A stretch of 64,000 nucleotides of DNA from the NCBI GenBank assembly GCA_965222115.1, contig CBDCTJ010000007.1, positions 2,560,001 to 2,624,000 of the forward strand, written 5' to 3'. The notes under the pieces are model-generated. The model saw nothing but the letters and a program-made list of their open reading frames with translations. It did not search any database and had not been told where the DNA came from. How positions within the stretch are numbered: the first letter of the stretch is position 1; each line of letters starts with the position of its first letter. The stretch comes from Planctomycetota bacterium (lineage in GTDB: Bacteria > Planctomycetota > PLA2 > JAEUHO01). Positions 11,288 through 31,427 of the stretch are shown piece after piece. Both the position numbers and the translations under genes were made by a program.

Positions 11288-13456
11288 TTAGATTTCCGCC
11301 GAGGGTTGAGCCGCGCTCTCGCGCATCGCTTGCAACACATAGCGTGCGGCGTCTCGAATGTCCTTGTGCTCTCGCTTCCAGAACGTGGGAAAGGCGCCCC
11401 ACGAAAGCAGTTCGCGTAGCACGGGTTCGGCCAAACTGGCGTCGTGGGCGGCAAGCAAATGAATGGCCTGCAGACGCCGATGATGCATGTGGTCGAGGCC
11501 TTTGGCGCTGCGCACCACGTTGCACAGGGCCAGCGTGGACACACGCGACATCAAGGCGATCTGAGACTCGCTGGGCGTCGTGTCCAGGGCCGCGCGCAAC
11601 CACTCTACCGACCATGCCGATGGCTGATCCACGACTTTGAGCACGGAACGCAAGACGGATCGCGAGTCATGATGCTGCAAAAAATTGACAATGGCATCGC
11701 GGTAGCGCGAGCCGTCTACTCGGGCAAGCATGCTCACAAACGGTGTGCTGTCTATGTGACTCAGCGAGAAGATCAGCTCGGGTCGCGGATCGGATGCGAG
11801 ACCATCACCCAGGGTGAGTTGCTTTTCGGCCGTGAGCAATCGCTGCGGACCCAGCTGCTTGACAACATCGAGCAGCTCGCGCGATTCATCGGCGTTGGTT
11901 AGATCGAGGGAATCAAAGTAGGTGACAAAGTGCTTAGGGAACTGCGAAACGGCGTTGGCCGACGTCAAGACACCGAATTCACGCAGTAGGCGCGTGCGAT
12001 CGCCACGCCTGAAGAGTCGAAACAGGCGGTCCTGCGCCAGAATGCGTTCCTCAGGAAGGGGTTGATTACCGGCGTCTTCGTTTTCCGTGGCGTCTGACCA
12101 GAAGTAGTCCACGTACTGCCGCAGGACACCGCGCTCTTCGGGACCAAGATTGTCCAGCAGCGGATCCAGCGCATCGATCAGTGCGGTGGACTTGGCGCTC
12201 TCCTCCGCCGACACCAGGTAGTGCAACAAGACGCCGATCTGCTCGGCGCGAATATCCACCTCAACTGAGGAAATTGGCTTCACGCGTTCTTGGGGCAACT
12301 TCTCAAGTTCTTTGAGAAACGAAGCCACATCGTCGGTGATTTGGTCGTCGCCGGCGTGGCCGGCCCTCTTGGGGTCGTGTTCGACTTTTTCTTGTTTGGA
12401 CCAACGCTCGAAATGATTGCCGCCCAATACGGGGGCCGCACCGTCTACCCGCATGAAGAGTTGGCGCGATACCGAGGCGATCAAGGTACCCAGCGTGTTT
12501 TCGCTTAGCGCGTCCTCCAACTCGTTTGCTTCATCTTGCCAAACGATGCGGTCCTCAAGATTCTCAAGAACGCTTTCGGCAACCCGTCGCGCCGTATCTT
12601 CCGCTGCCAACAGGCGACTTCCCATGTGCTGCACAATGCGGCGGACAAGGCGCTTGCCGTCAATACTCAGTTCCGGGGCAATGTCGTCGTCGATCTCTTC
12701 CAACAACTCTTCGCGCATGCGATCAATCGACGCCTGCGATCGATCGGCAAACGGATCGGACGTGTCGGATGCGGCGGCTGCCTGAAGCGTGTCTTGGTTG
12801 TTCTTGTGAAAGCGCTCGATGAGCCACACACGCACAGCGACGTCGCGGCTCTCCCACAACGACCGCGCAAGACGGGACTCAGGCGTGTCTTCTTCGAGGA
12901 AAGCATCGCCGTCGCCCCACGAGCGTATCGGTTTGGCCTCTTCGAGTTCAACTTCGCGCTTGGACTTGGTGTCGCGGCGGAATCCTCCGGCAAAGCGACG
13001 TTGAATCAGTTCGATGCCGAGATAGCGTTCAGGCCATAGCGATCCAAATTCGCTGTCGCCACCAATGCGCATGTGATTGCCGAGCAGGCGTTTGGTGAAC
13101 GCCACCAAACGCTCTCGATCGACATCGGGCAAAAAGCCAACGCCAGCCAAGGCGCCGCGTTCCACGCGCGATCGTAGCCACGTCAGATTGGTGTTGGGGC
13201 GCGGCGTGTGCAGGTGTTGACCCAGAAGGACTTGACTCCCCGTAAAGATCACGCGCACATGACCACCGGCATCGGTGTGTCCGGCGGCACTCGATTCCGT
13301 CAAGGCTTGTTGCAGGGCGTCCAGGGCGCGCCCCACTCGCACATTGGCCTCGGGGTAGATGGCCATTGCTTTGGTAAAATCCGCCCAGCGCTCCGCTACG
13401 GCGAGCAGCGGTTTGGGCGGAGCGTCGGCAGGAGAAATGGTCTTGGGCAGATTCAT
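11288..13456 (-). CDS. Hypothetical helical protein (HEAT-like C-terminus), co-transcribed with the HD-GYP gene
   Basis: Long ORF; likely start ATG 13456 (MNLPKT). N-terminus resembles that of the HD-GYP neighbour; C-terminus REHKDIRDAARYVL is HEAT-like. Confidence 0.7.
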   Translation of the reverse strand: MNLPKTISPADAPPKPLLAVAERWADFTKAMAIYPEANVRVGRALDALQQALTESSAAGHTDAGGHVRVIFTGSQVLLGQHLHTPRPNTNLTWLRSRVERGALAGVGFLPDVDRERLVAFTKRLLGNHMRIGGDSEFGSLWPERYLGIELIQRRFAGGFRRDTKSKREVELEEAKPIRSWGDGDAFLEEDTPESRLARSLWESRDVAVRVWLIERFHKNNQDTLQAAAASDTSDPFADRSQASIDRMREELLEEIDDDIAPELSIDGKRLVRRIVQHMGSRLLAAEDTARRVAESVLENLEDRIVWQDEANELEDALSENTLGTLIASVSRQLFMRVDGAAPVLGGNHFERWSKQEKVEHDPKRAGHAGDDQITDDVASFLKELEKLPQERVKPISSVEVDIRAEQIGVLLHYLVSAEESAKSTALIDALDPLLDNLGPEERGVLRQYVDYFWSDATENEDAGNQPLPEERILAQDRLFRLFRRGDRTRLLREFGVLTSANAVSQFPKHFVTYFDSLDLTNADESRELLDVVKQLGPQRLLTAEKQLTLGDGLASDPRPELIFSLSHIDSTPFVSMLARVDGSRYRDAIVNFLQHHDSRSVLRSVLKVVDQPSAWSVEWLRAALDTTPSESQIALMSRVSTLALCNVVRSAKGLDHMHHRRLQAIHLLAAHDASLAEPVLRELLSWGAFPTFWKREHKDIRDAARYVLQAMRESAAQPSAEI

Positions 13457-13614
13457 CCGTGTCTCACGGCGACTGCGTATGCCGCCACTATTTCTTCGGC
13501 GGTTCCTCATTCTCGGTCGTAGCGGAAAGCCCACCGGTCGGCGTTTTTTAGTATTTTGTACGCCGATCTGGGCGCGAAGGCACAGAGCCCGTCCCCCGGA
13601 TCCTGAGGTTGCTC

Positions 13615-16212
13615 CTATGCGGCGCGAACGAATGCGTCGCGGATGCCTAAAACGTTCTCCCACCGACGGATGACGAGGTCCGCGAGGAAGAGGAGCAATG
13701 CGAGGCCCAGGCACAGGGGCACAAGGTCGCGCGTGCGTACGCGGCCCGCCGGTAGGGGGGCCATCGTGAGGTTGTCGTTTCCACGCAGCATGCCGCCACA
13801 GGTTGACACAATGCGATTTGCCAGGACTTCGTTGACCCGATTGGAGACGACTTCGGTCGATGTTTCATGGACGAGGCCTGCGGACACGATCTCGGCGCCG
13901 GCCCGCGCGCGAACGAGATAGATCCCAGGGCGGCTTGGGACAAACGAACCTCGATAGCGCCCGGGGCCCGCTTGAGCGAGCGTATCCTCCGACACCTTCT
14001 CCATGCTCGAGCCGAGGGCGCCACGCGGGACGTAGTAGATCGTTGCGCGCACGTCGGCCGCGTTCTTAAACGAAGCGGCGTCTTCTAAGAGGTCCACAAT
14101 GATCTGGGCCTTACCCGATTCGCGTGCAATGCGCACATCCATGGTGCGTCCCTGGGGATTGCGCGCCATTTCGCGCAAGACTTGGCCCCAGAATTGGCCG
14201 TAGCCTTCCCAGCCCGAAACCCATAGCGCAGCCCAACGTGATTTGCAATCCGACGTAAACGCCGTGACCTTCCCAAGTCCGTATCGCCAGTGAGCAAGCA
14301 GCGGGTCGCCAATATCGGTTACCAGTGGCACCTGGCTGGTGGCTTTGGGAAGCGTGCGAACGTAACCAAGGAGCGAAGGCGCTTGATCGGCGTCCCAACC
14401 CGCCAGCATGGCATGGCGTTCCACCTGCTGGGGCTTGAAGGCCTGCTCCCGTACCATCTTGCCCAAGTGGGTGGCCGCGTCTTGGCTGAAGATCTTCGGA
14501 ATGCTAGAGGGATCCACCGTGGCGTAGTGCTTTCCACCGCCCGCTTGCGCGATGCGTTGCAACAACTGATTGTCGGCGCCATGACCCACGCCCACGGCGG
14601 ACACGGTCATACCTTCTGAGTTCATCGTTTGTGCCAGTTGCTCGTAGCCGGCGCCTTGCGAGTGGCCGTCGGTCAACACGATCATGTGCTTGACGCGTGC
14701 GCGCGTGTTCTTGAGTCCCTCGTAGCCCATCGACATGCCGGGGTAAATGTTGGTGCCGCCGCCGGCCGACAACGAGGCGATGCGGCGCTCAATCTCGCCC
14801 TTACGACCCGCGCGCATTACGGGAACCACCCACGAGGCACTGCCTGAGAATGCCACCACGCCAATGTAGTCCTTGCGACTCAACATTTCGGACGTGCCAA
14901 TGGCTGCGGCTTTACAGATGTCGATTTTGCCGCCGCCCATGGACCCCGATCGATCGATGACGAGCACAAGCGCGGTTGAATAGCGCTCCTCTTTGTCAGG
15001 CGGTTGCATGCGAACGGGCAAGATGTCTTCAATGGCCGTTCTGTAGTACCCGCCAACGCCAAAGGAGTTGACGCCACCAATCATGAGAAAGCCACCGCCC
15101 AGCTGCTCGACGTAATCCTGAACGAGTGTCATGGTGCGTTCCGGGAGGCGAAATGCCGCTACATCGGAAAACACAATGCCATCAAATACCGCCAACTCTT
15201 CAAGCGATTGAGGAATCGACTCCGGAGGGCGCACAACGAGTCGAATGCCCTCTTCTTGCATAGCATCAGGCAAGAAGTGGCCCTGTTCCGCATCACCTTC
15301 CACCAACAAAAGAAGCGGGCGTCCGCGAACTTCAACCAACGCCATGGCTTCGTTGTTCTGCGGAATTTCGTCGGTGCGATCGTCTTCAAAGCGGGCCAAG
15401 TAACGATAGAGATTGCGCTCCTCGGGCGTACGCGAAAAGGTCACGTTGCCGTCTTCGCCCGCTTTGAGCGTGACGGGTTTGCTGGCGACTTGCACGCCGT
15501 TCTCAAAAAAGAGGACGCTGCCCTTCGTGTCGTAATTGCTTTGGAGCTCTACCGTAAATTTCAGCGTGGCGCCTTCATGCGATCGTGCTTTGCTCGAACG
15601 CAAACGCACAATGCGCGCATCGGGGCGAGCCTCACCCTTTACGGCCACTACGTCAACGACCACGCCGCCAATACCCAGATCGCGGGCCGCCTCTTCGGCG
15701 TCGCCCTGCGTCTCAACAGCATCACTTACGACAACGATGCGACGTGCCACACCGGGTGGAAATAGGCCGGCCGCGAGAGACAGTCCCGCCGACAGGTCCG
15801 TGGCATGGCCCTGATCGCGCTGAAAGGCATCGTCTGGTACAAAGGAGACAGCGTCCTTCGTGGGGGGAATTAACACTTTCGGTGAAGCGGCAAAGGCCAA
15901 TGCCCCAACAAAAGCACCATCGGGGATGTGATCGAGCAGCGTAGTGACGCGTTCGGTCGCTCGCCGTAGGCCGGCTTCCCCAAGGCTCTTGCTGTGATCG
16001 ACCAAGAAGATCACCGCTTGCTCTTCGCTCGTCTCGTCGACACTGGGCATGGCAAGTGCAAGGATCAACAACGAAAGAAGCGCGGAACGCACAATGAGCA
16101 GGAGTTTCTTACGCTCGGGGCTCATGGGGTGAACCGATCGCTTGGCGGCCCACATGACCAGCAAGACCGCGGGGACGATGAGCAATAGAAGCGCGGGATG
16201 TTCGAAGCTCAA
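13615..16212 (-). CDS. BatA-like N-terminus, two VWA domains and a glutamine amidotransferase-like domain; membrane protein
   Basis: FEHPALLLL N-terminus; MIDAS motifs VDHSKS and IDRSGS with GGGT and LTDG; GGGFLMIGG.NSFG.GGY; WRYGLGKV.AFTSD; C-terminal TM. Confidence 0.88.
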   Translation of the reverse strand: MSFEHPALLLLIVPAVLLVMWAAKRSVHPMSPERKKLLLIVRSALLSLLILALAMPSVDETSEEQAVIFLVDHSKSLGEAGLRRATERVTTLLDHIPDGAFVGALAFAASPKVLIPPTKDAVSFVPDDAFQRDQGHATDLSAGLSLAAGLFPPGVARRIVVVSDAVETQGDAEEAARDLGIGGVVVDVVAVKGEARPDARIVRLRSSKARSHEGATLKFTVELQSNYDTKGSVLFFENGVQVASKPVTLKAGEDGNVTFSRTPEERNLYRYLARFEDDRTDEIPQNNEAMALVEVRGRPLLLLVEGDAEQGHFLPDAMQEEGIRLVVRPPESIPQSLEELAVFDGIVFSDVAAFRLPERTMTLVQDYVEQLGGGFLMIGGVNSFGVGGYYRTAIEDILPVRMQPPDKEERYSTALVLVIDRSGSMGGGKIDICKAAAIGTSEMLSRKDYIGVVAFSGSASWVVPVMRAGRKGEIERRIASLSAGGGTNIYPGMSMGYEGLKNTRARVKHMIVLTDGHSQGAGYEQLAQTMNSEGMTVSAVGVGHGADNQLLQRIAQAGGGKHYATVDPSSIPKIFSQDAATHLGKMVREQAFKPQQVERHAMLAGWDADQAPSLLGYVRTLPKATSQVPLVTDIGDPLLAHWRYGLGKVTAFTSDCKSRWAALWVSGWEGYGQFWGQVLREMARNPQGRTMDVRIARESGKAQIIVDLLEDAASFKNAADVRATIYYVPRGALGSSMEKVSEDTLAQAGPGRYRGSFVPSRPGIYLVRARAGAEIVSAGLVHETSTEVVSNRVNEVLANRIVSTCGGMLRGNDNLTMAPLPAGRVRTRDLVPLCLGLALLLFLADLVIRRWENVLGIRDAFVRAA

Positions 16213-23677: not shown

Positions 23678-24790
23678 CTACTCCGCGGCGTGGCTGGGAG
23701 CCGGGGTCTCACGAATCAAGGTGTCGATCAAATCATCCACATTGAGCGACTCGGCTTCACCTTCGAAGTTGAGAATGATGCGGTGGCGCAACGCGGGTTT
23801 GGCCGCGCGACGTACGTCGTCAATGGAGACCGCCGTGCGACCGTCGAGTAGGCAGTACACGCGGGCCGCTCGTATAAGCGTCTGCATGCCTCGTGGGCTG
23901 GCGCCATAGGCCACCATGCGCTTGACCTGCTCGTTGCCGTCGCCATCGGGATGGGTACTCAAAACCAGGGACGCGGCATACGTGGCAATGGGATCGGCCA
24001 CCGGCACATGCGTAATGAGCTGTTGGAAGCGCGTGAGATCGTCACCCGTCATCACCGTATCCACATCCGGCTCCACAAAGCCTGTGGTGCGGCGTGAGAT
24101 TTCGACCAACTGCTCTTTGCTGGGGTATCGCACACGCAACTTGAAAAAGAATCGGTCAAGCTGTGCTTCGGGAAGCGGATAGGTGCCTTCCATCTCCAGT
24201 GGATTTTGCGTTGCGAGCAAGAAGAAGGGCGCTGGTAAGTCGAACTGATCACCGCCCACCGTGACGCGTCGCTCCTGCATGACTTCCAATAGGGCGGCTT
24301 GCGTCTTGGGCGTGGCTCGGTTGATTTCATCGACGAGCAGCAAGTGTGTAAAAACGGGTCCCTTTTCAAATCGGAAGGAGCGATGCCCTCGATCGTCTTC
24401 ACTCACAATGTGGTTACCCAGAATGTCGGCAGGCATGAGATCGGGCGTGCACTGAATGCGACCAAAGCCGAGTTCAAGCACACGGCCCAACATGCGCACC
24501 AAAAACGTCTTACCGAGTCCGGGCACACCTTCTAAGAGCACATGACCGCCACTAAACACACCAATGAGCACGTCGCGAATGAGTTCGTCGTGGCCGACGA
24601 CCGCGCGTTGCATCTGCTTGAGCGTGTTTGGGAAGGTGGTGCGGAAGTGTTCAAACTCGGATGCGAGCGCTTTGGCGTCCTGGCCTTCAAACGCATCGCG
24701 CATCCCAGTGGCGGACGCAGTCGCGCTCGCCGAGGCCGTTCCACCTACGGGCACATCCCCGCGCCCCTCACTCGTCTGCGGGTCACTCAT
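23678..24790 (-). CDS. moxR: MoxR family AAA+ ATPase
   Basis: LLEGVPGLGKT, RIQCTPDLMPAD, LLVDEINRATPKTQAALLE, ATQNPLEMEGTYPLPEAQLDRF, YGASPR. Confidence 0.95.
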   Translation of the reverse strand: MSDPQTSEGRGDVPVGGTASASATASATGMRDAFEGQDAKALASEFEHFRTTFPNTLKQMQRAVVGHDELIRDVLIGVFSGGHVLLEGVPGLGKTFLVRMLGRVLELGFGRIQCTPDLMPADILGNHIVSEDDRGHRSFRFEKGPVFTHLLLVDEINRATPKTQAALLEVMQERRVTVGGDQFDLPAPFFLLATQNPLEMEGTYPLPEAQLDRFFFKLRVRYPSKEQLVEISRRTTGFVEPDVDTVMTGDDLTRFQQLITHVPVADPIATYAASLVLSTHPDGDGNEQVKRMVAYGASPRGMQTLIRAARVYCLLDGRTAVSIDDVRRAAKPALRHRIILNFEGEAESLNVDDLIDTLIRETPAPSHAAE

Positions 24791-24793
24791 GGC

Positions 24794-26812
24794 TTAGCGT
24801 CCTTCTTCTTTGGCGCGCGCAGGTTGCCCGGCTTCCGACCCAGGGTCTTCCAACCGACGGCGTAGTTCTGTGAAGTATCGAAGCACTTGTTCACGGCGCG
24901 ACAGGGGTATGGGGTCATCGGCCAGTGCTTCTTCTTGTGCCTTTAAGAACTCCACCGTGATGTCTTGCACCGAACGCGACGAGCCCTCCGAACGCGGTTG
25001 GCCATCGATGTCGCGGGTTGTGCTTGGGCCGGCGCCGCGAGGAGCCACGCTAATGCGTTCTTCGCGATTGGCGCGCGAACCGGGGCGCGTGCCCCCGCCC
25101 ATAGGTGCCGATCCTGAACCGGCACTGTTGCTGCTTGAGTTGCTCTGTGAGCCACTCTGTCCACCTTGACCGGGGATTACGCCTGCGCCAGAACTTGAGG
25201 AGCTACCTGCTCCTGAGCCGGAACCACTTCAGGTTCCGCCTGGGCCGCTCTTTCAGGTGCCGCCGGGTGATGTGCCCGGAATGGGGGCGCCGCCGCGTCG
25301 TCCTTTGTTGCCGGTCCCCGGTGTAGGGGTTCGCCCGCTCCGCGAGCGTCCACAGTTCGGTCAGCACGGTCCTTGATTGCCGGGTGGTGGTTGGGTGCCC
25401 GGCGTGGGGGTTGAGGACGATTGATGACTGTTGTAGCGACGATTGTTCTTGGGCTGATTGCGCTGATAGGACGAGTAGCGCCGCGTCAATGGAATCGGCT
25501 GATTTGAGTTGTTGTTGCGCAACGACTTGAGGTTGCGATTCGCGGTCATGGTTGTGAGCTGTTTCATGGTGCGGCCCGACTTGCCAAGCGCGCGCTGCCC
25601 CGATGCCCGCAGATTGCGTGCGAGACGACGAAGTTGATTGCGCATACGAAGTCGATTGGCCGCCTTTTTGTACTTGCGCGCCAGTTCACGGAGTTCGCGT
25701 GAGGCCCCCTTGGCGTCTTTGGCATCCAGTCGCTTCTGCGCCGCCGCCAAATGGCGACCCAAGGCAGTCTTTAGATCCTTGGCCGAAGCCTTCTTGAGTC
25801 CCGCGGCGAACGCAGTCGAAATCCTCGCGCGTTCTTCATGGGTGAGTTTGTCGGATGCCAATCGTTCGGCGAGCTTGAGCGCTTCGGCCGAGGCGCGCTT
25901 CATGTCTTCGGCGCGAAGTGCACCGGCGAGCGCTGCGGTGTCGGCATGTCGCTCCAACTCGGCCAACAGCGCGGAACTTACCTTTTCGCCCATGGCCTTA
26001 AGCCCGGCCGCCAGCTTTTCTGCTTCGCGTGCTTGCTTCTCAAGGGCTTCGAGCACCTTTCGAGACGACTGCTTCTCCTTTTCCTTCATCTTCTCGGCAC
26101 TGGCCTTCATTTCTTTCTTGAGATCGTCGAGTGCTTTGGCTTCTTCGGGCGTGAGAGCCTTCTTCTCGTCTTCGAGACGCTTCGCTTCGTCTTCCATGGC
26201 GGTGGCGACGTCGGTGGCATCAACCGTGCGGTCTTCAGGTGCAGAAATCTTGTCGATCACAACAATCGAGAGTGCAACGGCACAGAAGAGGGCCGGAGCA
26301 AGCAAGCTCGAGAGCGGTGCGCGCAGCGGTACATACGTGGACACCTTGGTACGCGCTTGATCCAGGGCTCGCGTAGCGCGTTCCATGTGGAGCATCTCGC
26401 CGGCATCGGTCGGCATACCTCCAGCGCGACGCTCAAAGGCATGGGCTGAAAGTAGGGTTTCGCCGGTTCCTGCGCTGCGGTCAACCAGTGCCAATGCAGA
26501 TGCGGGCGACGGTCTACGCAGAAGGCTGTAAAACAAACACGCCAAGGCCCAGACACCTACGGCCAACACACAGATTGCGACGCGCGCAAAGGCGGATTCC
26601 GGCGCCCAGGGGTGACCGAAGATACGGCTAAGCACTACCAGGACGGCCAGCGCGCCAAAAACGGGCCATGCACTGGCGCGAAGGGATCGGAACCAGTCTC
26701 GAAGCAAAAGCCTCGAAGCAAGGCGTTCACCAAACGCCGTAAACGGTCCTCCTACGGTTGCGTTCGATATGACGCGGTGCGCATCGGCTTGTGGTGTGGT
26801 TGGATTGTTCAT
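24794..26812 (-). CDS. Membrane-anchored coiled-coil protein, putative selenoprotein with three in-frame UGA codons (672 aa; U484, U520, U528)
   Basis: ORFs 25361..26812 and 24794..25102 share a frame. The gap contains only TGA stops (25361-63, 25253-55, 25229-31) and reads GPC*PNCG...PGGT*KSGPGGT*SGSGSG...APMGGG. The distal part ends in EEALADDPIPLSRREQVLRYF, a C-terminal motif typical of such MoxR-operon proteins. A hairpin follows each TGA. Confidence 0.75.
25198..25214 (-). promoter_or_regulatory. Candidate bacterial SECIS hairpin for UGA 25229-31
   Basis: AGGAGC-AGGUA-GCUCCU (6 bp, loop at +21, G second). Confidence 0.62.
25215..25250 (-). promoter_or_regulatory. Candidate bacterial SECIS hairpin for UGA 25253-55
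   Basis: CGGAACC-UGAAGU-GGUUCCG (7 bp, loop at +22, G second) with a lower GAGC/GCUC stem. The loop contains the third UGA. Confidence 0.6.
25336..25348 (-). promoter_or_regulatory. Candidate bacterial SECIS hairpin for UGA 25361-63
   Basis: CGCUC-GCG-GAGCG; loop starts with G at +18 after the UGA. Confidence 0.55.
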
Positions 26813-26854: not shown

Positions 26855-29104
26855 CTAGCGATCGTCTCCAACTTCTTGAAGCAAACGACGCAAGCGTCGC
26901 TCGACTTCGGGGTCTTTGGTGAGCCGCAGGGCCTGTTCCATGGGCAAACGCGCCACGTCGCCCATCTCTTGCAGTTTGACGTAGGCGGCTTCGCGGCGTT
27001 CCCAACTGTTGGCACCAAGATCCTGAATGGTCTTGGTGAGGCGCGACAGGAGCGCATCCGGTATGACGGGTGTGGGTACGTGGACTTCCACAATATCTCG
27101 CACGGGAATCATCATGCGCCCCCGATCGGTCTCGAAGGGCAACAACACTTCTTCCAACGTGCCAAAGATCTGTCCGCCGCCCCAAATCTCTGCCTGAAAC
27201 TGGGGAACGAACAGAGGATCTTCGGGGTCGCCCTCTTCGGCGTTTCGCATGACGCGCATCTGGCTGGGGGACACGGGCAGTGTCTCCCCGGCGGCACGGA
27301 AGTGGAGCGTGTCCAAATCCACGCGGCCCAATATCACGTCCCCACCACTGAGAATCGCGTGGGGGCGCATGGCGGCGTCATCGTCTTCGCCGGAATGATC
27401 CTCGCGATGAAATGACGACTCTTCGGATTGGTCGCGTTCAATCGGCTCTTCGTATTGCAGTGCGCGGAGCTCATGTCCCTTGAGTTCAATCTTCCCAAGC
27501 AGTTTGTTTTCAAGTGCGAGGGAGGAAGCGCGCAAAAACGCGCGCAGCCGCGTGCCGTCTTTCAGTTGGACCATATAGCCGGGGTAGTCGTCGTCGAGAG
27601 GACGAATCATTCGTATATCTTCAAGCGGGAGATCGAGTGGACCCCACGATGTGGCAATACCCAAAGATCCGGTCGTCTTCATGCTGCGCAACACGAGTCC
27701 TGCGCGCGTCATCACCATCCAGCTGTCTTTGGGGTCACTGTCTTTGGGGTCAGTGTCATTCACGTCACTGCCCTTGGAATCACCGCTTTCGGGATCCGCA
27801 CCGTCTTTATCATCGATCGGGTCATCGATCGGGTCGAGTAGGCTGGGCCCGCGTCGTTTATCGGCCGACTTGGTCATGACCAATCGGTCGAGGCGATCAA
27901 TTGAGAGATCCACCGTTGCGCCGCTCGTCATATCAAACCGCAGGTCCGTGGCTTCCAAATCGCCGAGCAGGCGTTGTCCGTCACGCAGATACACGCGCGG
28001 CGAAAGGGCTGTGTTTCGTAACCCGACGATTGCAGCAACGTCCTTCATCGGCACGTCAACCGTGCCGTGATCCGTCAATACGGCCAGGCGGCTGCACGCG
28101 GCTTTGCCCTGCACCAGGGTTTGTTTGCCAAGTGCGAGGACGTCAAAATTTGTGGGCGTGAGGCCCAGTTCCGACTCGATTGATGGGGTAAGACCGCCCT
28201 CCGAGCTACCCCAGCCGCCACGTCCCACGTTGACCAAGCTCTTACGCACGGATCGCGGGAGATCTCGCGTCCATCGTGAGCCGTTGAAGTGACGAAACTC
28301 GCGAGCGACCTTGTCCTTTTTCAATGTGGGCTTCGAAACGATGCGCGCACCCAGCATGATGCCAATCGTGCGGCCCGGCTGAATGGTCACGGAGTAACTG
28401 AAGTTGAGCGACTGATTGTTGTTGTTGGTTCGGAAGAACGGCTTCACACTGCTCTTAGGAGAGCGCAGATACCAAAATACGTGCCCGTTGATATTGCCTT
28501 GGACCCGCGCGTAAACGCCCACATCCTTCGCGGTCATCTGCCGCGAACCCGATTGACCGGAGGACGTGAGCATGGACGACGGTCGCACATTGAGATGGCC
28601 CATCACATTGTGTGTGATCTTCATTGGGGCTTTGGACGTGTTGGTCACGCGATCGACGAGTCGTGCACCTCGAAGTTTGGGGTGAACTTTGAGTCGTCGT
28701 TCCACCGTGAATCTGCCACAGCGGCCCCGCAGGACGTACTCGCTGCCATCCGGCGTCATCATGGGCGGCTGGGACGGTTGAAACTGCTGTCCGTTGATGT
28801 TCATGTTGGAGAGCAGATAGCTATTGTTGACGTGGGCGCGCCCATGCGCATCGCACGTCCACGTGGCGCCACCCCCCGCGTTCTTCGCGCCCCACTTTGC
28901 TGGGACCAGGCGTTCCTTTGCCGTGGCGTGGGTGGGCATCCCGATCCATGCTGTCAACGCGATGGTGACGAGACACAACGACCTTGTTAGATGTCGCTTT
29001 GTAGAATCAGCTCGCTGAGGTAGATCGTCGAGTCGGGCAATCAACGTGTTGGTGTCCTTGGTATCTGGTTGACGACTGGGATGGGCTGGCTGTTGGATAC
29101 GCAC
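26855..29104 (-). CDS. Secreted hypothetical protein with C-terminal HEAT-like helical pair
   Basis: Signal-like SLCLVTIALTAWIGMPTHATA; repeated beta modules (L.DG..L.G...L...T..G...VP..D); C-terminal LGANSWERREAA...DPEVERR. Start uncertain (GTG 29104 or TTG 29044). Confidence 0.72.
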   Translation of the reverse strand: MRIQQPAHPSRQPDTKDTNTLIARLDDLPQRADSTKRHLTRSLCLVTIALTAWIGMPTHATAKERLVPAKWGAKNAGGGATWTCDAHGRAHVNNSYLLSNMNINGQQFQPSQPPMMTPDGSEYVLRGRCGRFTVERRLKVHPKLRGARLVDRVTNTSKAPMKITHNVMGHLNVRPSSMLTSSGQSGSRQMTAKDVGVYARVQGNINGHVFWYLRSPKSSVKPFFRTNNNNQSLNFSYSVTIQPGRTIGIMLGARIVSKPTLKKDKVAREFRHFNGSRWTRDLPRSVRKSLVNVGRGGWGSSEGGLTPSIESELGLTPTNFDVLALGKQTLVQGKAACSRLAVLTDHGTVDVPMKDVAAIVGLRNTALSPRVYLRDGQRLLGDLEATDLRFDMTSGATVDLSIDRLDRLVMTKSADKRRGPSLLDPIDDPIDDKDGADPESGDSKGSDVNDTDPKDSDPKDSWMVMTRAGLVLRSMKTTGSLGIATSWGPLDLPLEDIRMIRPLDDDYPGYMVQLKDGTRLRAFLRASSLALENKLLGKIELKGHELRALQYEEPIERDQSEESSFHREDHSGEDDDAAMRPHAILSGGDVILGRVDLDTLHFRAAGETLPVSPSQMRVMRNAEEGDPEDPLFVPQFQAEIWGGGQIFGTLEEVLLPFETDRGRMMIPVRDIVEVHVPTPVIPDALLSRLTKTIQDLGANSWERREAAYVKLQEMGDVARLPMEQALRLTKDPEVERRLRRLLQEVGDDR

Positions 29105-29108
29105 GTGG

Positions 29109-31427
29109 TTAAGGCGCCTTCGGAGGGCTCGGCGCCTTCTTCGGGGGTGCGACGGGGGCGGGTGGGGGTGCCTTAGGCTTACTCGGCACAGCCTGAGACT
29201 TTGGTGGCGCCGATGTTTCTTCCGGCGCGTCCTTCTTCTTGGCTTCCTTTTCACCCGTACCGTTCGACTTGCCTTCAGCGTCCTCTTTCACGGTTTTTTC
29301 AGGAATTCGATCGTTCACCGCAGCGCTCATAATGTGGGTGGCCGGGACATTCCAAACGCCATACGCTGTCTTGACGGGGACGACCTGCGTGCGCAAGACA
29401 CCCGGCGACTTTTCGCCGGATGTAGATACCCAATTGATGGCGAGGCCCGCCGACTCACGGGCCTTCTTGTCGCGGGCAAATGTATGCACGATGGACACGG
29501 GAATATCTCTCGCGCGCTTCCCGTTGCTTATCTTTAGCGATTTTAACTCGATGGTTCCGGCTAACCGCGCGCCTCCAATCAACTCGATAAACTTCGTCTT
29601 GGCCTTGGGGGACTTCGATCCGTCCGCTTCGGTTGACTTGGCTTCCGTTGATTTCGTATCGGAGTCTGCTGTATTGGAATCATCGGCATTGGAATCATCC
29701 GTGGCGGAATCCTCGCCGTTGTCCGTCACGGTGCGATAGACGGCCGCAATGTCGCCAATCTTGAGTTTCGCCTTCGCGAATCGTTTGGGCGTGAACGGCG
29801 CGTCGCCTGCTGTGAGCGCTGCGGGAAAGCGCGAGCCGAGCCGATCGACAACCCAATACGACGGGTATGGTTCCAGCGAATGCCCCATGTGAACGATGTC
29901 TGCCGGACGGGCATCAAATTCGCCCCACGGAGCAATGCCTTTTATGTTCACGTCATTATTGGTCGCCGCGAGACATTTTGATCCGTCGAGCAGTCGAAGA
30001 AATACTTCGTCCTTCGCCAATCGCGCGCCGTCCGATTCCTTGTAGCGAAGTACGAGCAACTCCATCGAGTCCACGCGAACCGGAATCACGAGGCCTGAAC
30101 TGGTCTTGATGGTGAGAACACCTTGCGGCTTGATGTCGCCCGTAAAGATCTCGCCGTTGCGGAGTAATAGGCGGGTGGGGAATCCCTCGCCTCGTCCCCC
30201 AACGATTGCGGCGACGTCATCCGCTGGAACCGTAATGGAGCCCATCCGCGAACGGATGGCCATGGGGCTTGCGGTGACCTCTCCGCCGAGTTCCTGACCA
30301 TCATCCAAGATCAACGTGTCGGCATTGTCTACGCGTTCGAGGCCACGTGCCTTTAGGAGGCTATCCAGCTCGACCAACGCACCTTCGGCGATCGCCACCG
30401 TGCCAGAAAAGGACTTGCCCGCTTGCAAATTGTCGATGGGGCCAACCAGAGGCTGAAGTTTGAGGCTGGCTGTGGCTGCCACGTCGAGCGGTTTGAGGAG
30501 CGTCGTGGCGGCCTCGGCGCTGGGTTGTGCGTCGAGGTGTCGCTGAGCAATCGTGATGCACACCGACCGCGACTTGCCGGGTGGAAGCTTTAGGTTGTAG
30601 AGAAAGTTGTAGTAGCGGTGGGATCCTTCCACCGAGAGATTGGGTCGATTGCCCGCTCCAAGGGCACAAAGATGAAACACAACAGACGGTCGACTTTGCC
30701 GGTTGCGGTAGGCGACAATCCCCGTTTCGTCCTTTCCAAGGGGGCCGCTCATGGCCACCCGTCCCGTGTTGCTTACCGTGTTTTGTGCCGAAGAGCCAAG
30801 GGTTGAGCGGTAGGCAATCGACAGGTCGTGTCGTGCTCGAGACGTATTCGTGAACGTGTCGATGTATCGCAGCAAGGCGTTCTTCTTATCAAAGAGCATG
30901 CGCCGGCGAATCTCGACGGGTGCCGCGGTGCTTGTACCGGTCACGACCATCTCGCCACCGGGCTTGGTCTTCTTCACCTCGCCGGACGTGGACCAGTTTT
31001 TTCCGTTTACGGAGAGCGACATGGCGGTGTCGAAGCAGTCACTGGTCCCATCGCCGATCTCACCTTTGTTGTTGGGATCCCAGTTCATCTTCAAACTGTC
31101 TTTGCCGCTGAACTCTTTGATGCCGGAGCTCACCAATGTCTCGACGAGCTTCTTCTTTGCAGCGCCCTTCTTCTTCGCGGCGACCTTTGCTGATTTGGCT
31201 TTGGGGGCGGGCGCGCCTCCGCGTGGCGCTCCCCAGGCAGGGGACAGCGGCCATGCGACACACACTACCCCTAACGCCATGGCCAAGCTGTGAGCCATGA
31301 CCCTGAGCCCCATGACCCTGAGCCGTGGATGTATGCGCGGACGTATGCAGTTTTGCAGTGGGTGCGTCTTGGGGTGGCCCGAGGGTTCGCGCATGGATGG
31401 TGCGCATCGGGAGAGAGGCAGATGCAT
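29109..31427 (-). CDS. Secreted hypothetical protein, probable paralog of the downstream gene
   Basis: Signal-like ALGVVCVAWPLSPAWG; shared motifs with the downstream gene (RRMLFD..LLRYIDTFTNTS vs RRLKVH..ARLVDRVTNTS; VPADDVAAIVG vs VPMKDVAAIVG); P/K-rich tail. GGAGG upstream of ATG 31427; true start may be further in. Confidence 0.72.
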   Translation of the reverse strand: MHLPLSRCAPSMREPSGHPKTHPLQNCIRPRIHPRLRVMGLRVMAHSLAMALGVVCVAWPLSPAWGAPRGGAPAPKAKSAKVAAKKKGAAKKKLVETLVSSGIKEFSGKDSLKMNWDPNNKGEIGDGTSDCFDTAMSLSVNGKNWSTSGEVKKTKPGGEMVVTGTSTAAPVEIRRRMLFDKKNALLRYIDTFTNTSRARHDLSIAYRSTLGSSAQNTVSNTGRVAMSGPLGKDETGIVAYRNRQSRPSVVFHLCALGAGNRPNLSVEGSHRYYNFLYNLKLPPGKSRSVCITIAQRHLDAQPSAEAATTLLKPLDVAATASLKLQPLVGPIDNLQAGKSFSGTVAIAEGALVELDSLLKARGLERVDNADTLILDDGQELGGEVTASPMAIRSRMGSITVPADDVAAIVGGRGEGFPTRLLLRNGEIFTGDIKPQGVLTIKTSSGLVIPVRVDSMELLVLRYKESDGARLAKDEVFLRLLDGSKCLAATNNDVNIKGIAPWGEFDARPADIVHMGHSLEPYPSYWVVDRLGSRFPAALTAGDAPFTPKRFAKAKLKIGDIAAVYRTVTDNGEDSATDDSNADDSNTADSDTKSTEAKSTEADGSKSPKAKTKFIELIGGARLAGTIELKSLKISNGKRARDIPVSIVHTFARDKKARESAGLAINWVSTSGEKSPGVLRTQVVPVKTAYGVWNVPATHIMSAAVNDRIPEKTVKEDAEGKSNGTGEKEAKKKDAPEETSAPPKSQAVPSKPKAPPPAPVAPPKKAPSPPKAP

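Follow-up and report, generated by a model that had tools for sequence, protein, structure and literature searches.

In the selenocysteine insertion sequence (SECIS) of Escherichia coli fdhF, an 11-nt spacer, a GGUC loop, a bulged U and specific loop contacts are combined. The corresponding model of the bacterial element (bSECIS), in the form given in a 2026 review, has a loop of 3-9 nt with a G as its first or second base or both, an upper stem of 4-16 bp, a distance of 16-37 nt from the UGA codon and a minimum free energy (MFE) of -7.5 kcal/mol or lower (PMC13188914). An in-frame UGA followed by a small hairpin inside the coding region is likewise found, three times over, in a gene of a Planctomycetota bacterium (GenBank assembly GCA_965222115.1, contig CBDCTJ010000007.1), analysed here within a window of 64,000 nt (positions 2,560,001 to 2,624,000 of the forward strand). 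The gene lies on the minus strand, as do its parts described below, and extends in window numbering from 26812 (ATG) to 24794; the same frame is open from the ATG through three TGAs, with 672 sense codons before a terminal TAA at 24796-24794. From comparison with its relatives it is read here, with a probability of about 0.8, as a conserved gene with several selenocysteine (Sec) codons, namely the UGAs, and with SECIS hairpins that form a chain.

The GGUC loop of fdhF recurs in 6 of the 20 hairpins of this family, whereas the stems are perfect and without a bulge. The family further differs from the fdhF/bSECIS type in that 3-4 putative Sec codons stand within 45 codons, two or three of them 7-8 codons apart, and in that a SECIS contains the next UGA. 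More than one Sec per polypeptide is known from other bacterial proteins: the same review counts 119 prokaryotic selenoprotein families or subfamilies, of which a few have 2-3 Sec, such as TsoB with UxxxxU (NF045694), the UXX-star fusions, and arsenite methyltransferase/AhpD with three (PMC13188914). Compared with the multi-Sec proteins described there, the present family would reach four Sec (in loci L016 and L021, see below) and would carry them in a disordered low-complexity linker instead of an enzyme active site. Among eukaryotes, SELENOP is described as likewise having many UGA-Sec codons clustered C-terminally and selenium-dependent premature termination products. It uses SECIS elements in the 3' untranslated region that act at a distance via SBP2/eEFSec and shares no sequence relationship with the gene studied here, where each UGA would need a local in-frame hairpin, and hence the chained layout.

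The family itself seems to be unlisted. In the accessible text of the 2026 review the words Planctomycet, Verrucomicrob, MoxR and transmembrane do not occur, and a term search did not find the family in its table (PMC13188914). Nor is it described in the accessible parts of the deep-Sep (PMC12013277), Olavius symbiont (PMC1976440) and Porphyra planctomycete (PMC4807772) studies; in Table S9 of the last, all candidates are of the kind divided between two genes, and one entry, a 'hypothetical', could not be identified. A literature search found neither a MoxR-adjacent family of this kind nor a SECIS containing the next Sec codon. The recoding mechanism would be the known bacterial one; the chained-SECIS layout was not found in print.

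The in-frame UGA codons and the family that carries them

With U marking the UGA, UGA1 (25363-25361) is codon 484 in the context C-U-P-N-C (G-P-C-U-P-N-C), UGA2 (25255-25253) is codon 520 in P-G-G-T-U, and UGA3 (25231-25229) is codon 528 in G-G-T-U-S-G-S-G, all packed within 45 codons. The original prediction, made from the sequence of the window alone, had listed products of 483, 519, 527 and 672 aa ending at the three UGAs and the TAA, a spacing of 8 codons between UGA2 and UGA3 with GGx-ACC before both, and a moxR gene starting 3 nt past the final stop. All of this is read in the sequence: the codons directly before UGA2 are GGC-ACC and those before UGA3 GGA-ACC, and the ATG of moxR is at 24790.

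Annotation and databases end the gene at UGA1, with a product of 483 aa. If the UGAs were ordinary stops, this product would be real and the 189 codons downstream would be a decaying remnant or would be translated separately, for which an ATG-started open reading frame (ORF) of 102 aa exists in the same frame (25102..24794). The databases do list proteins of 483-525 aa that end at these UGAs; these are gene-caller and database products, and the homologs speak for a single longer protein. A protein search with the read-through product returned 13 homologs besides the window's own protein. Four of them (P0006, P0009, P0012 and P0014; 565-621 aa) are stop-free single proteins that cover 93-94% of the product and carry both the N-terminal helical part and the C-terminal motif EEAL..PLPL.RREQVLRYF. 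Seven others terminate exactly at one of the UGAs: P0002, which is 82% identical and comes from a different assembly, ends ...GNQGPC at the position of UGA1, and P0003, P0004, P0007, P0008 and P0011 (...GGT) and P0005 (...GKT) end at that of UGA2, so that gene callers appear to have halted at one conserved TGA. P0013 is a partial homolog. The last ~100 residues of P0010 (575 aa) are a wrong-frame reading (..ARWHLKRQRRGRNLKRFRPRL..) across the putative Sec cassette described below; from their shifted-frame letters, the two T-UGA codons can be deduced here as well, again with a spacing of 8 codons, and this entry exemplifies how gene callers mishandle the family.

A six-frame search of 40 genomes of the class picked out five more, each belonging to genus g10, in which the gene is matched over its full length and contains 2-4 TGAs in frame; the UGA positions are kept at 42-44% protein identity. 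Scans of genome and metagenome contigs gave at least 49 loci, with at least about 25 having no internal UGA; among the matches listed in these scans, the Sec forms were five duplicates of the class genomes, L068 (99% identical to L018) and L069. The non-redundant set consists of seven loci, namely this genome, L016, L017, L018, L019 and L021 of genus g10, and the metagenome locus L069. They hold 21 in-gene UGAs at aligned places, 2-4 per gene and four in L016 and L021; the seven represent about three lineages, and counts across sites are therefore not independent. Conservation of an in-frame UGA in the homologs of other organisms, which two earlier studies use as a mark of selenoproteins along with homologs that have Cys aligned to the UGA (PMC1976440; PMC12013277), is apparent in these alignments.

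Past the first UGA, substitutions gather at the third codon position (61 vs 26 and 18 for L017/L018; 53 vs 23 and 15 for L016/L021), which indicates that the downstream part is translated in this frame; the frame is open, with this bias, in all pairs compared. The C-terminal domain is in frame with the N-terminal motif in most loci holding both, and the conserved region upstream of the ATG of the 102-aa ORF (e.g. GGL-x-AG-x-G-x-A) forms one protein with the C-terminal domain in the stop-free homologs. In L016, L019 and L021, TGA provides the 3-4 internal putative Sec codons and also the true terminal stop of the same gene, which argues against a general reassignment of TGA, and none of these three terminal TGAs has a hairpin at the SECIS offset (0/3). 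Together with the conservation of the UGA positions at 42-44% identity, these observations make ordinary stops improbable.

The first of the UGAs has a clear Cys counterpart. In L017, L018, P0004, P0007, P0008 and P0010, the place of UGA1 is taken by the second Cys of a CxxC motif (CPGC, CPIC, CPQC); the motif is CPGCPNCG in L017, L018 and P0004, CPG-U-ANC in L069 and CPT-U in L016, L019 and L021. To judge from this alignment, UGA1 and the second Cys of CxxC make up a Sec/Cys pair of the classical type. The remaining UGAs all follow G-G-T, in the form PGGT-U-(3-4 residues)-GGT-U-SGSG, with an extra copy GGT-U-GGSG in L016 and L021. Similar contexts are found elsewhere in the linker of Cys-only relatives, as PGT-C and PGS-C in L034 and GGT-C in L067. 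In place of the CxxU/CxxC of the Sec forms, the linkers of L044, L059 and L071, also Cys-only, hold the Cys-rich stretch C-P-N/Q-C-G-G-x-C-Q-G-x-C-Q-G, which suggests a metal or redox site of variable size across the family.

The Sec-decoding trait (selA, selB, selC, selD) appears complete in the source genome, in which tRNA-Sec, selA (480.7 bits), selB (346.6 bits) and selD (150.6 bits) were found. The active-site residue of selD is itself U (..AAGG-U-AAKVD..), encoded by UGA, and a hairpin loop starts 21 nt downstream. With selA found in 38 of the 40 class genomes, co-occurrence cannot separate the Sec forms of the family from the others. A genome-wide scan for further read-through TGAs with such hairpins gave 13 candidates, mostly in non-coding frames. 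Outside the window, C7:1391388-1393238 (minus strand) is a candidate selenoprotein, secreted and with a thioredoxin-like CxxC region (..IEFG-U-VGGAC..), followed by 331 more open codons; its hairpin is GUCCCC/GGUUC/GGGGGC, with the loop starting 24 nt past the UGA. C3:168862-170694 (minus strand) has a signal-peptide-like start and, after the UGA in ..PGAVI-U-LRGSP.., 267 further open codons with a Gly/Pro-rich stretch; its hairpin is weak (-7.0), and it is possibly a selenoprotein and possibly due to chance.

Hairpins downstream of the UGA codons

Each UGA of the gene is followed by a SECIS-like hairpin. Hairpin 1 (25348-25332; CGCUCGC/GGA/GCGGGCG) has 7 bp including one G-U and -9.8 kcal/mol, hairpin 2 (25238-25219; CGGAACC/UGAAGU/GGUUCCG) has 7 bp and -11.2 kcal/mol, with UGA3 as loop bases 1-3, and hairpin 3 (25214-25198; AGGAGC/AGGUA/GCUCCU) has 6 bp and -8.6 kcal/mol. 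The loops measure 3, 6 and 5 nt and start 19, 21 and 20 nt past UGA1, UGA2 and UGA3, and the stems start 12, 14 and 14 nt past them; the three hairpins lie within all four bSECIS limits. The hairpin after UGA2, with UGA3 in its loop, is present exactly as originally described; hairpin 1 was not listed in that description. Hairpin 3, said to begin right after UGA3, does follow hairpin 2 with a gap of 4 nt, but lies 14 nt from the UGA3 codon. Likewise, the notion of sequential, overlapping signals holds insofar as relatives keep a SECIS containing the next UGA; the helices are adjacent, and 'nested' can be said of a codon in a SECIS, not of a helix in a helix. Hairpins 2 and 3 stand side by side and are both formed in the MFE structure, and as a unit of 41 nt they reach -21.4 kcal/mol (z -3.10; equalled by 1/200 dinucleotide shuffles).

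The hairpins were scored as the best contiguous hairpin of at least 4 bp with a loop of 3-7 nt starting 17-24 nt past the UGA. With the protein kept fixed, synonymous shuffles as good as the natural sequence were obtained in 13/1000 cases for hairpin 1, 6/1000 for hairpin 2 and 25/1000 for hairpin 3. The summed energy for this gene, -29.6 against -5.4 +/- 4.4, was reached in 2/5000 whole-gene and 4/5000 local-region synonymous shuffles, and all three sites at -6.5 or better together in 0/5000. Over the 21 sites the sum is -203.9, compared with -50.0 +/- 13.8 in the shuffles, 0/1000 of which reach it. A hairpin follows 20 of the 21 UGAs, with 5-9 bp, a loop of 3-6 nt starting at 19-24 nt, a stem beginning 12-17 nt past the UGA and -6.6 to -14.0 kcal/mol. 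Values of -6 or better are found at 95% of the UGA sites and at 17% of 1023 other codons of the same low-complexity regions (14% once the neighbours of the UGAs are excluded). As a genome background, among 1026 TGAs that end frames of at least 250 codons, 4.3% reach -6.5 or better and 0.9% reach -9.8. A G is present in the first two loop bases of all 20 hairpins, compared with 110 of 176 control hairpins, and the loop sequences include, besides GGUC, also GUGG, GCGG, GUU, AGGUA and GGA.

Covariation among homologs, proposed at the outset as a check, also supports the hairpins. RNAalifold, applied to an ungapped 57-nt alignment of the seven loci, returns the same two helices with compensatory changes in 5 of 15 pairs, and in 4 of 6 pairs of the helix of hairpin 3. 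The covariation score is 0.295 vs 0.118, with 1/500 shuffles as good, and 87.6% of the cells pair, against 28-51% when the partners are slid by 1-3 columns. The terminal hairpin differs by locus (GGAGC/GCUCC, GCUUCCC/GGGAGGC, GGCUCCG/CGGAGCC, UCCCCCG/CGGGGGG), so the predicted structure is kept while its sequence changes across lineages.

Several results weigh against the UGAs being Sec codons with dedicated hairpins, in addition to the limited number of lineages mentioned above. The MFE of the 51 nt past each UGA is no better than in synonymous shuffles over the 21 sites (z -2.29 to +1.77); in this gene it is -18.3, -19.9 and -14.6 for UGA1-3 (z -1.07, -0.54 and +0.76). The region is GC-rich, its Gly codons are complementary to those for Ser, Thr and Pro, and it forms hairpins easily. 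The outcome of the shuffling test, originally named as a possible refutation, is split, favourable for hairpins at these offsets (0/1000 over all sites) and null for the whole-window MFE. By MFE against dinucleotide shuffles, hairpin 1 is not significant (z -0.43). The first GGT-U of L021 is without a hairpin in the 17-24 nt range, the nearest loop being found by eye at about 35 nt. An Rfam cmscan of 24700-25500 with E up to 10 gave no SECIS family and only a chance snoRNA match, a null that says little, since the bacterial elements vary too much, and are too short, to be captured by covariance models. UGA2 and UGA3 have no aligned Cys in any homolog found, the cassette being missing from Cys-only relatives, and the usual selenoprotein argument is thus weaker for these two. 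Finally, selD of the source genome is broken by several frameshifts (contig C1, ~654440-655200, minus strand). This selD lies within the last 1.2 kb of contig C1, whose end overlaps the start of C7 over 328 nt at 98.8% and with unequal length; selA is split across the same two contigs, and relatives have an intact selD with one TGA. From the discordant overlap and the intact copies, the damage is read here as probable assembly error at an unpolished contig junction, a dead selD being the less likely alternative.

Such indel-type damage, in selD and where the C1 end meets the C7 start, also raises the question of whether long-read frameshift errors have created false in-frame stops in the gene itself. 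Logan contigs from three runs (two samples of one study, possibly the source sample) are identical to the assembly over 25082-25600, with 0 differences, so the UGAs are not assembly slips; moreover, the same UGAs are found in six other assemblies from other projects, and P0002 ends at UGA1. No RNA run is among the sequencing runs listed. An artefact of assembly or sequencing is for these reasons extremely improbable.

The same whole-window null would be expected if the hairpins were a by-product of a Gly/Ser/Thr-rich repeat, in which GGN pairs with NCC, together with its duplication, and if one or none of them functioned as a SECIS. The 14-17% of other regional codons with a hairpin of -6 or better and the z of -0.43 for hairpin 1 point the same way. 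With the protein fixed, however, such hairpins appear in 0.6-2.5% of the shuffles per site and all three in 0/5000, the helices persist with different sequences and residues across lineages, and all 20 loops obey the G rule, which leaves this explanation quite unlikely. In other systems, read-through is known to be promoted by stable structures that follow the stop codon. The hairpins could thus act without Sec, by stimulating near-cognate suppression (Trp, Cys, Arg) or by slowing release factor 2 without SelB, and the lack of Cys counterparts for UGA2 and UGA3 would fit such a role. The bSECIS distance, the small loops, the G rule in 20/20 and the GGUC loops in six are better matched by Sec insertion, as are the pairing of UGA1 with the CxxC Cys, the retention of selA in the class and the presence of selB and tRNA-Sec in the genome; read-through of this other kind is held to be as improbable as ordinary stops. 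SelB binding to hairpins 1-3 and Sec insertion remain what the sequence features would predict.

The cassette and its chained layout

In the five relatives of genus g10, the GGT-U segments are encoded by a 21-nt unit, GGY ACC UGA RGY GGY UCR GGU, with the peptide G-T-U-S/G-G-S-G. The short duplication suspected between UGA2 and UGA3 is borne out by these relatives, which hold the GGT-U unit in two or three tandem copies with a spacing of 7-8 codons: two copies are present in L017, L018, L019, L069 and this genome, and three in L016 and L021. In genus g10, ACCUGA(A) pairs with (U)UCRGGU, which places the next UGA in the 5' stem arm and not in the loop, and the loop of this cassette hairpin starts 21-22 nt past the preceding UGA. 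A separate, different terminal hairpin follows the last UGA of each chain. In the three-unit genes, the arms are able to pair across units into a single long composite hairpin.

In the genome studied here, GGU is followed by an additional UCC-GGC, with which the pairing moves to CGGAACC/GGUUCCG and UGA3 comes to lie in the loop; the former arms CCUGA and UCAGG persist, 12 nt apart. L069 uses a third register, GGACCU/GGGUCC, in which the U of UGA is the last stem base and GA are the first bases of the loop. The whole UGA is in the loop only in this genome among the seven loci. On the evidence of these alignments, the chain of codons placed in SECIS hairpins is a conserved modular design and not a local accident.

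The proposed mechanism follows the known bacterial one. SelB with GTP and Sec-tRNA(Sec) would dock on the mRNA hairpin just past each UGA. UGA2 would be decoded with hairpin 2 at the ribosome entrance; over the next 8 codons the ribosome would melt hairpin 2, so that UGA3 reaches the A site while hairpin 3 takes up the same relative position. The inclusion of UGA3 in hairpin 2 would follow from the two Sec codons being only 8 codons apart. In general terms, each cassette hairpin would hold its own UGA and act as SECIS for the preceding cassette, duplication would add a Sec, and the terminal hairpin would serve the last UGA. The product would be a single protein of 672 residues, anchored in the membrane and for the most part helical, from an uncharacterised family of Planctomycetota/Verrucomicrobiota.

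A broader proposal, held tentatively and at somewhat less than even odds, is that the 21-nt unit is a portable Sec cassette, made of a Sec codon and the SECIS of the upstream unit, which grows by tandem duplication, and that the chain also works as a multi-step selenium gate on the completion of the protein and on the coupled translation of the MoxR/vWA operon. The gate is suggested by the position of all Sec codons before the C-terminal domain and by the stop 3 nt before moxR. When the pattern GGNGGNACNTGA-N(9-15)-GGNGGNACNTGA was searched in 401 genomes of the phylum, five genomes matched, four of them being the known loci, and a reversed-pattern control gave two matches. The fifth, G360 (L082, 1491-1572), with a 22-nt tandem repeat of 3.7 copies with GGTGGGACCTGA, was rejected as chance and unrelated, its period not being a multiple of 3 and the repeat being out of frame.

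Protein, operon and selenium supply

The predicted protein begins with an N-terminal helical membrane region (residues ~23-190; 26243..26746), recognised by hydropathy, with hydrophobic segments at residues 48-66, 80-98 and 168-186 and an AlphaFold2 predicted local distance difference test (pLDDT) of mostly 71-90. From these segments and the positive-inside rule, an N-in topology would place residues 187-672 outside the cytoplasm. A helical soluble domain follows (residues ~195-433; 25514..26230), with a pLDDT of 93-96 over residues 281-380 and the family-invariant motif AELERHADT (alignment columns 284-292). The Gly/Ser/Pro-rich linker (residues ~431-610; 24983..25522) is predicted to be disordered, with a pLDDT below 50 at 431-495 and 497-610, and holds all non-membrane Cys and putative Sec residues: C483, U484, C487, U520 and U528. 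The conserved C-terminal two-helix domain (residues ~609-655; 24848..24988), with EEAL-x3-P(L/I)PL-x-RR-x-QVLRYF and helices at 609-632 and 637-655 (AlphaFold2 pLDDT about 69-84), lies downstream of the UGAs and would be made only if all three were read through. The AlphaFold2 model was built on a 16-row alignment and has a mean pLDDT of 67.4 and a predicted template modelling score (pTM) of 0.39; a Foldseek search of it against the PDB gave no usable fold match (best E 0.21). The ESM Atlas, queried with P0006, returned only unnamed clusters, and Pfam and NCBIfam hold no family for the protein, its halves or the stop-free homologs. It may be conjectured that C-U-x-x-C and the two G-G-T-U, on a flexible and probably extracytoplasmic linker, form a redox or metal-binding tether.

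Downstream, moxR (23678..24790; 370 aa; Pfam AAA_3, E 5e-59, with AAA_lid_2) is followed on the same strand by a 1509-aa TPR/PQQ protein, a DUF58 protein (2.4e-32), BatA_N (1.1e-7) with VWA_2, and VWA (5.1e-32) with GATase1_like. This is the gene set of the Bat/MoxR-DUF58-vWA operons of the Bacteroides aerotolerance type, likewise on one strand, and the putative selenoprotein gene stands in such a Bat-like envelope operon; its product is not a described Bat component. Directly upstream (26855-31427, minus strand) are genes of 799 and 772 aa without a Pfam or NCBIfam match, and an 808-aa gene at 11288-13714 is a further unexplained member of the MoxR/DUF58/vWA cluster.

It was originally proposed that the selenium supply could set the ratio of the 483-, 519-, 527- and 672-aa products and might affect the translation of moxR. 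In E. coli, UGA-SECIS recoding is reported to be 30-40% efficient and selenium-dependent (PMC4513850). If, by extrapolation, this efficiency held here, full-length protein would amount to a few percent after three serial events, next to a graded set of shorter forms of 483, 519 and 527 aa, and the ratio of these forms may then depend on selenium. An effect of selenium on moxR may also exist; the idea comes solely from the 3-nt gap between stop and start.

Bacterial Sec insertion is considered costly, since the hairpin required by every UGA lies within the coding region and constrains the residues following it; this is one reason why a single Sec is the rule among bacterial selenoproteins, the 2026 review describing 2-3 at most (PMC13188914). 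With 3-4 putative Sec codons in a short stretch, and with hairpins that also carry the codon to come, in a repeat able to grow by duplication, the family would offer a compact natural template for multi-Sec engineering and a system in which to study successive recoding events by SelB and the ribosome. If the proposal is true, the cassette would be a natural way round the rule that every bacterial UGA-Sec requires an in-frame hairpin of its own. For the organisms concerned, an unlisted and probable selenoprotein family, truncated by gene callers, is tied to the widespread and unexplained MoxR/vWA (Bat-like) envelope system, for which its Sec/Cys cluster suggests a redox or metal chemistry.

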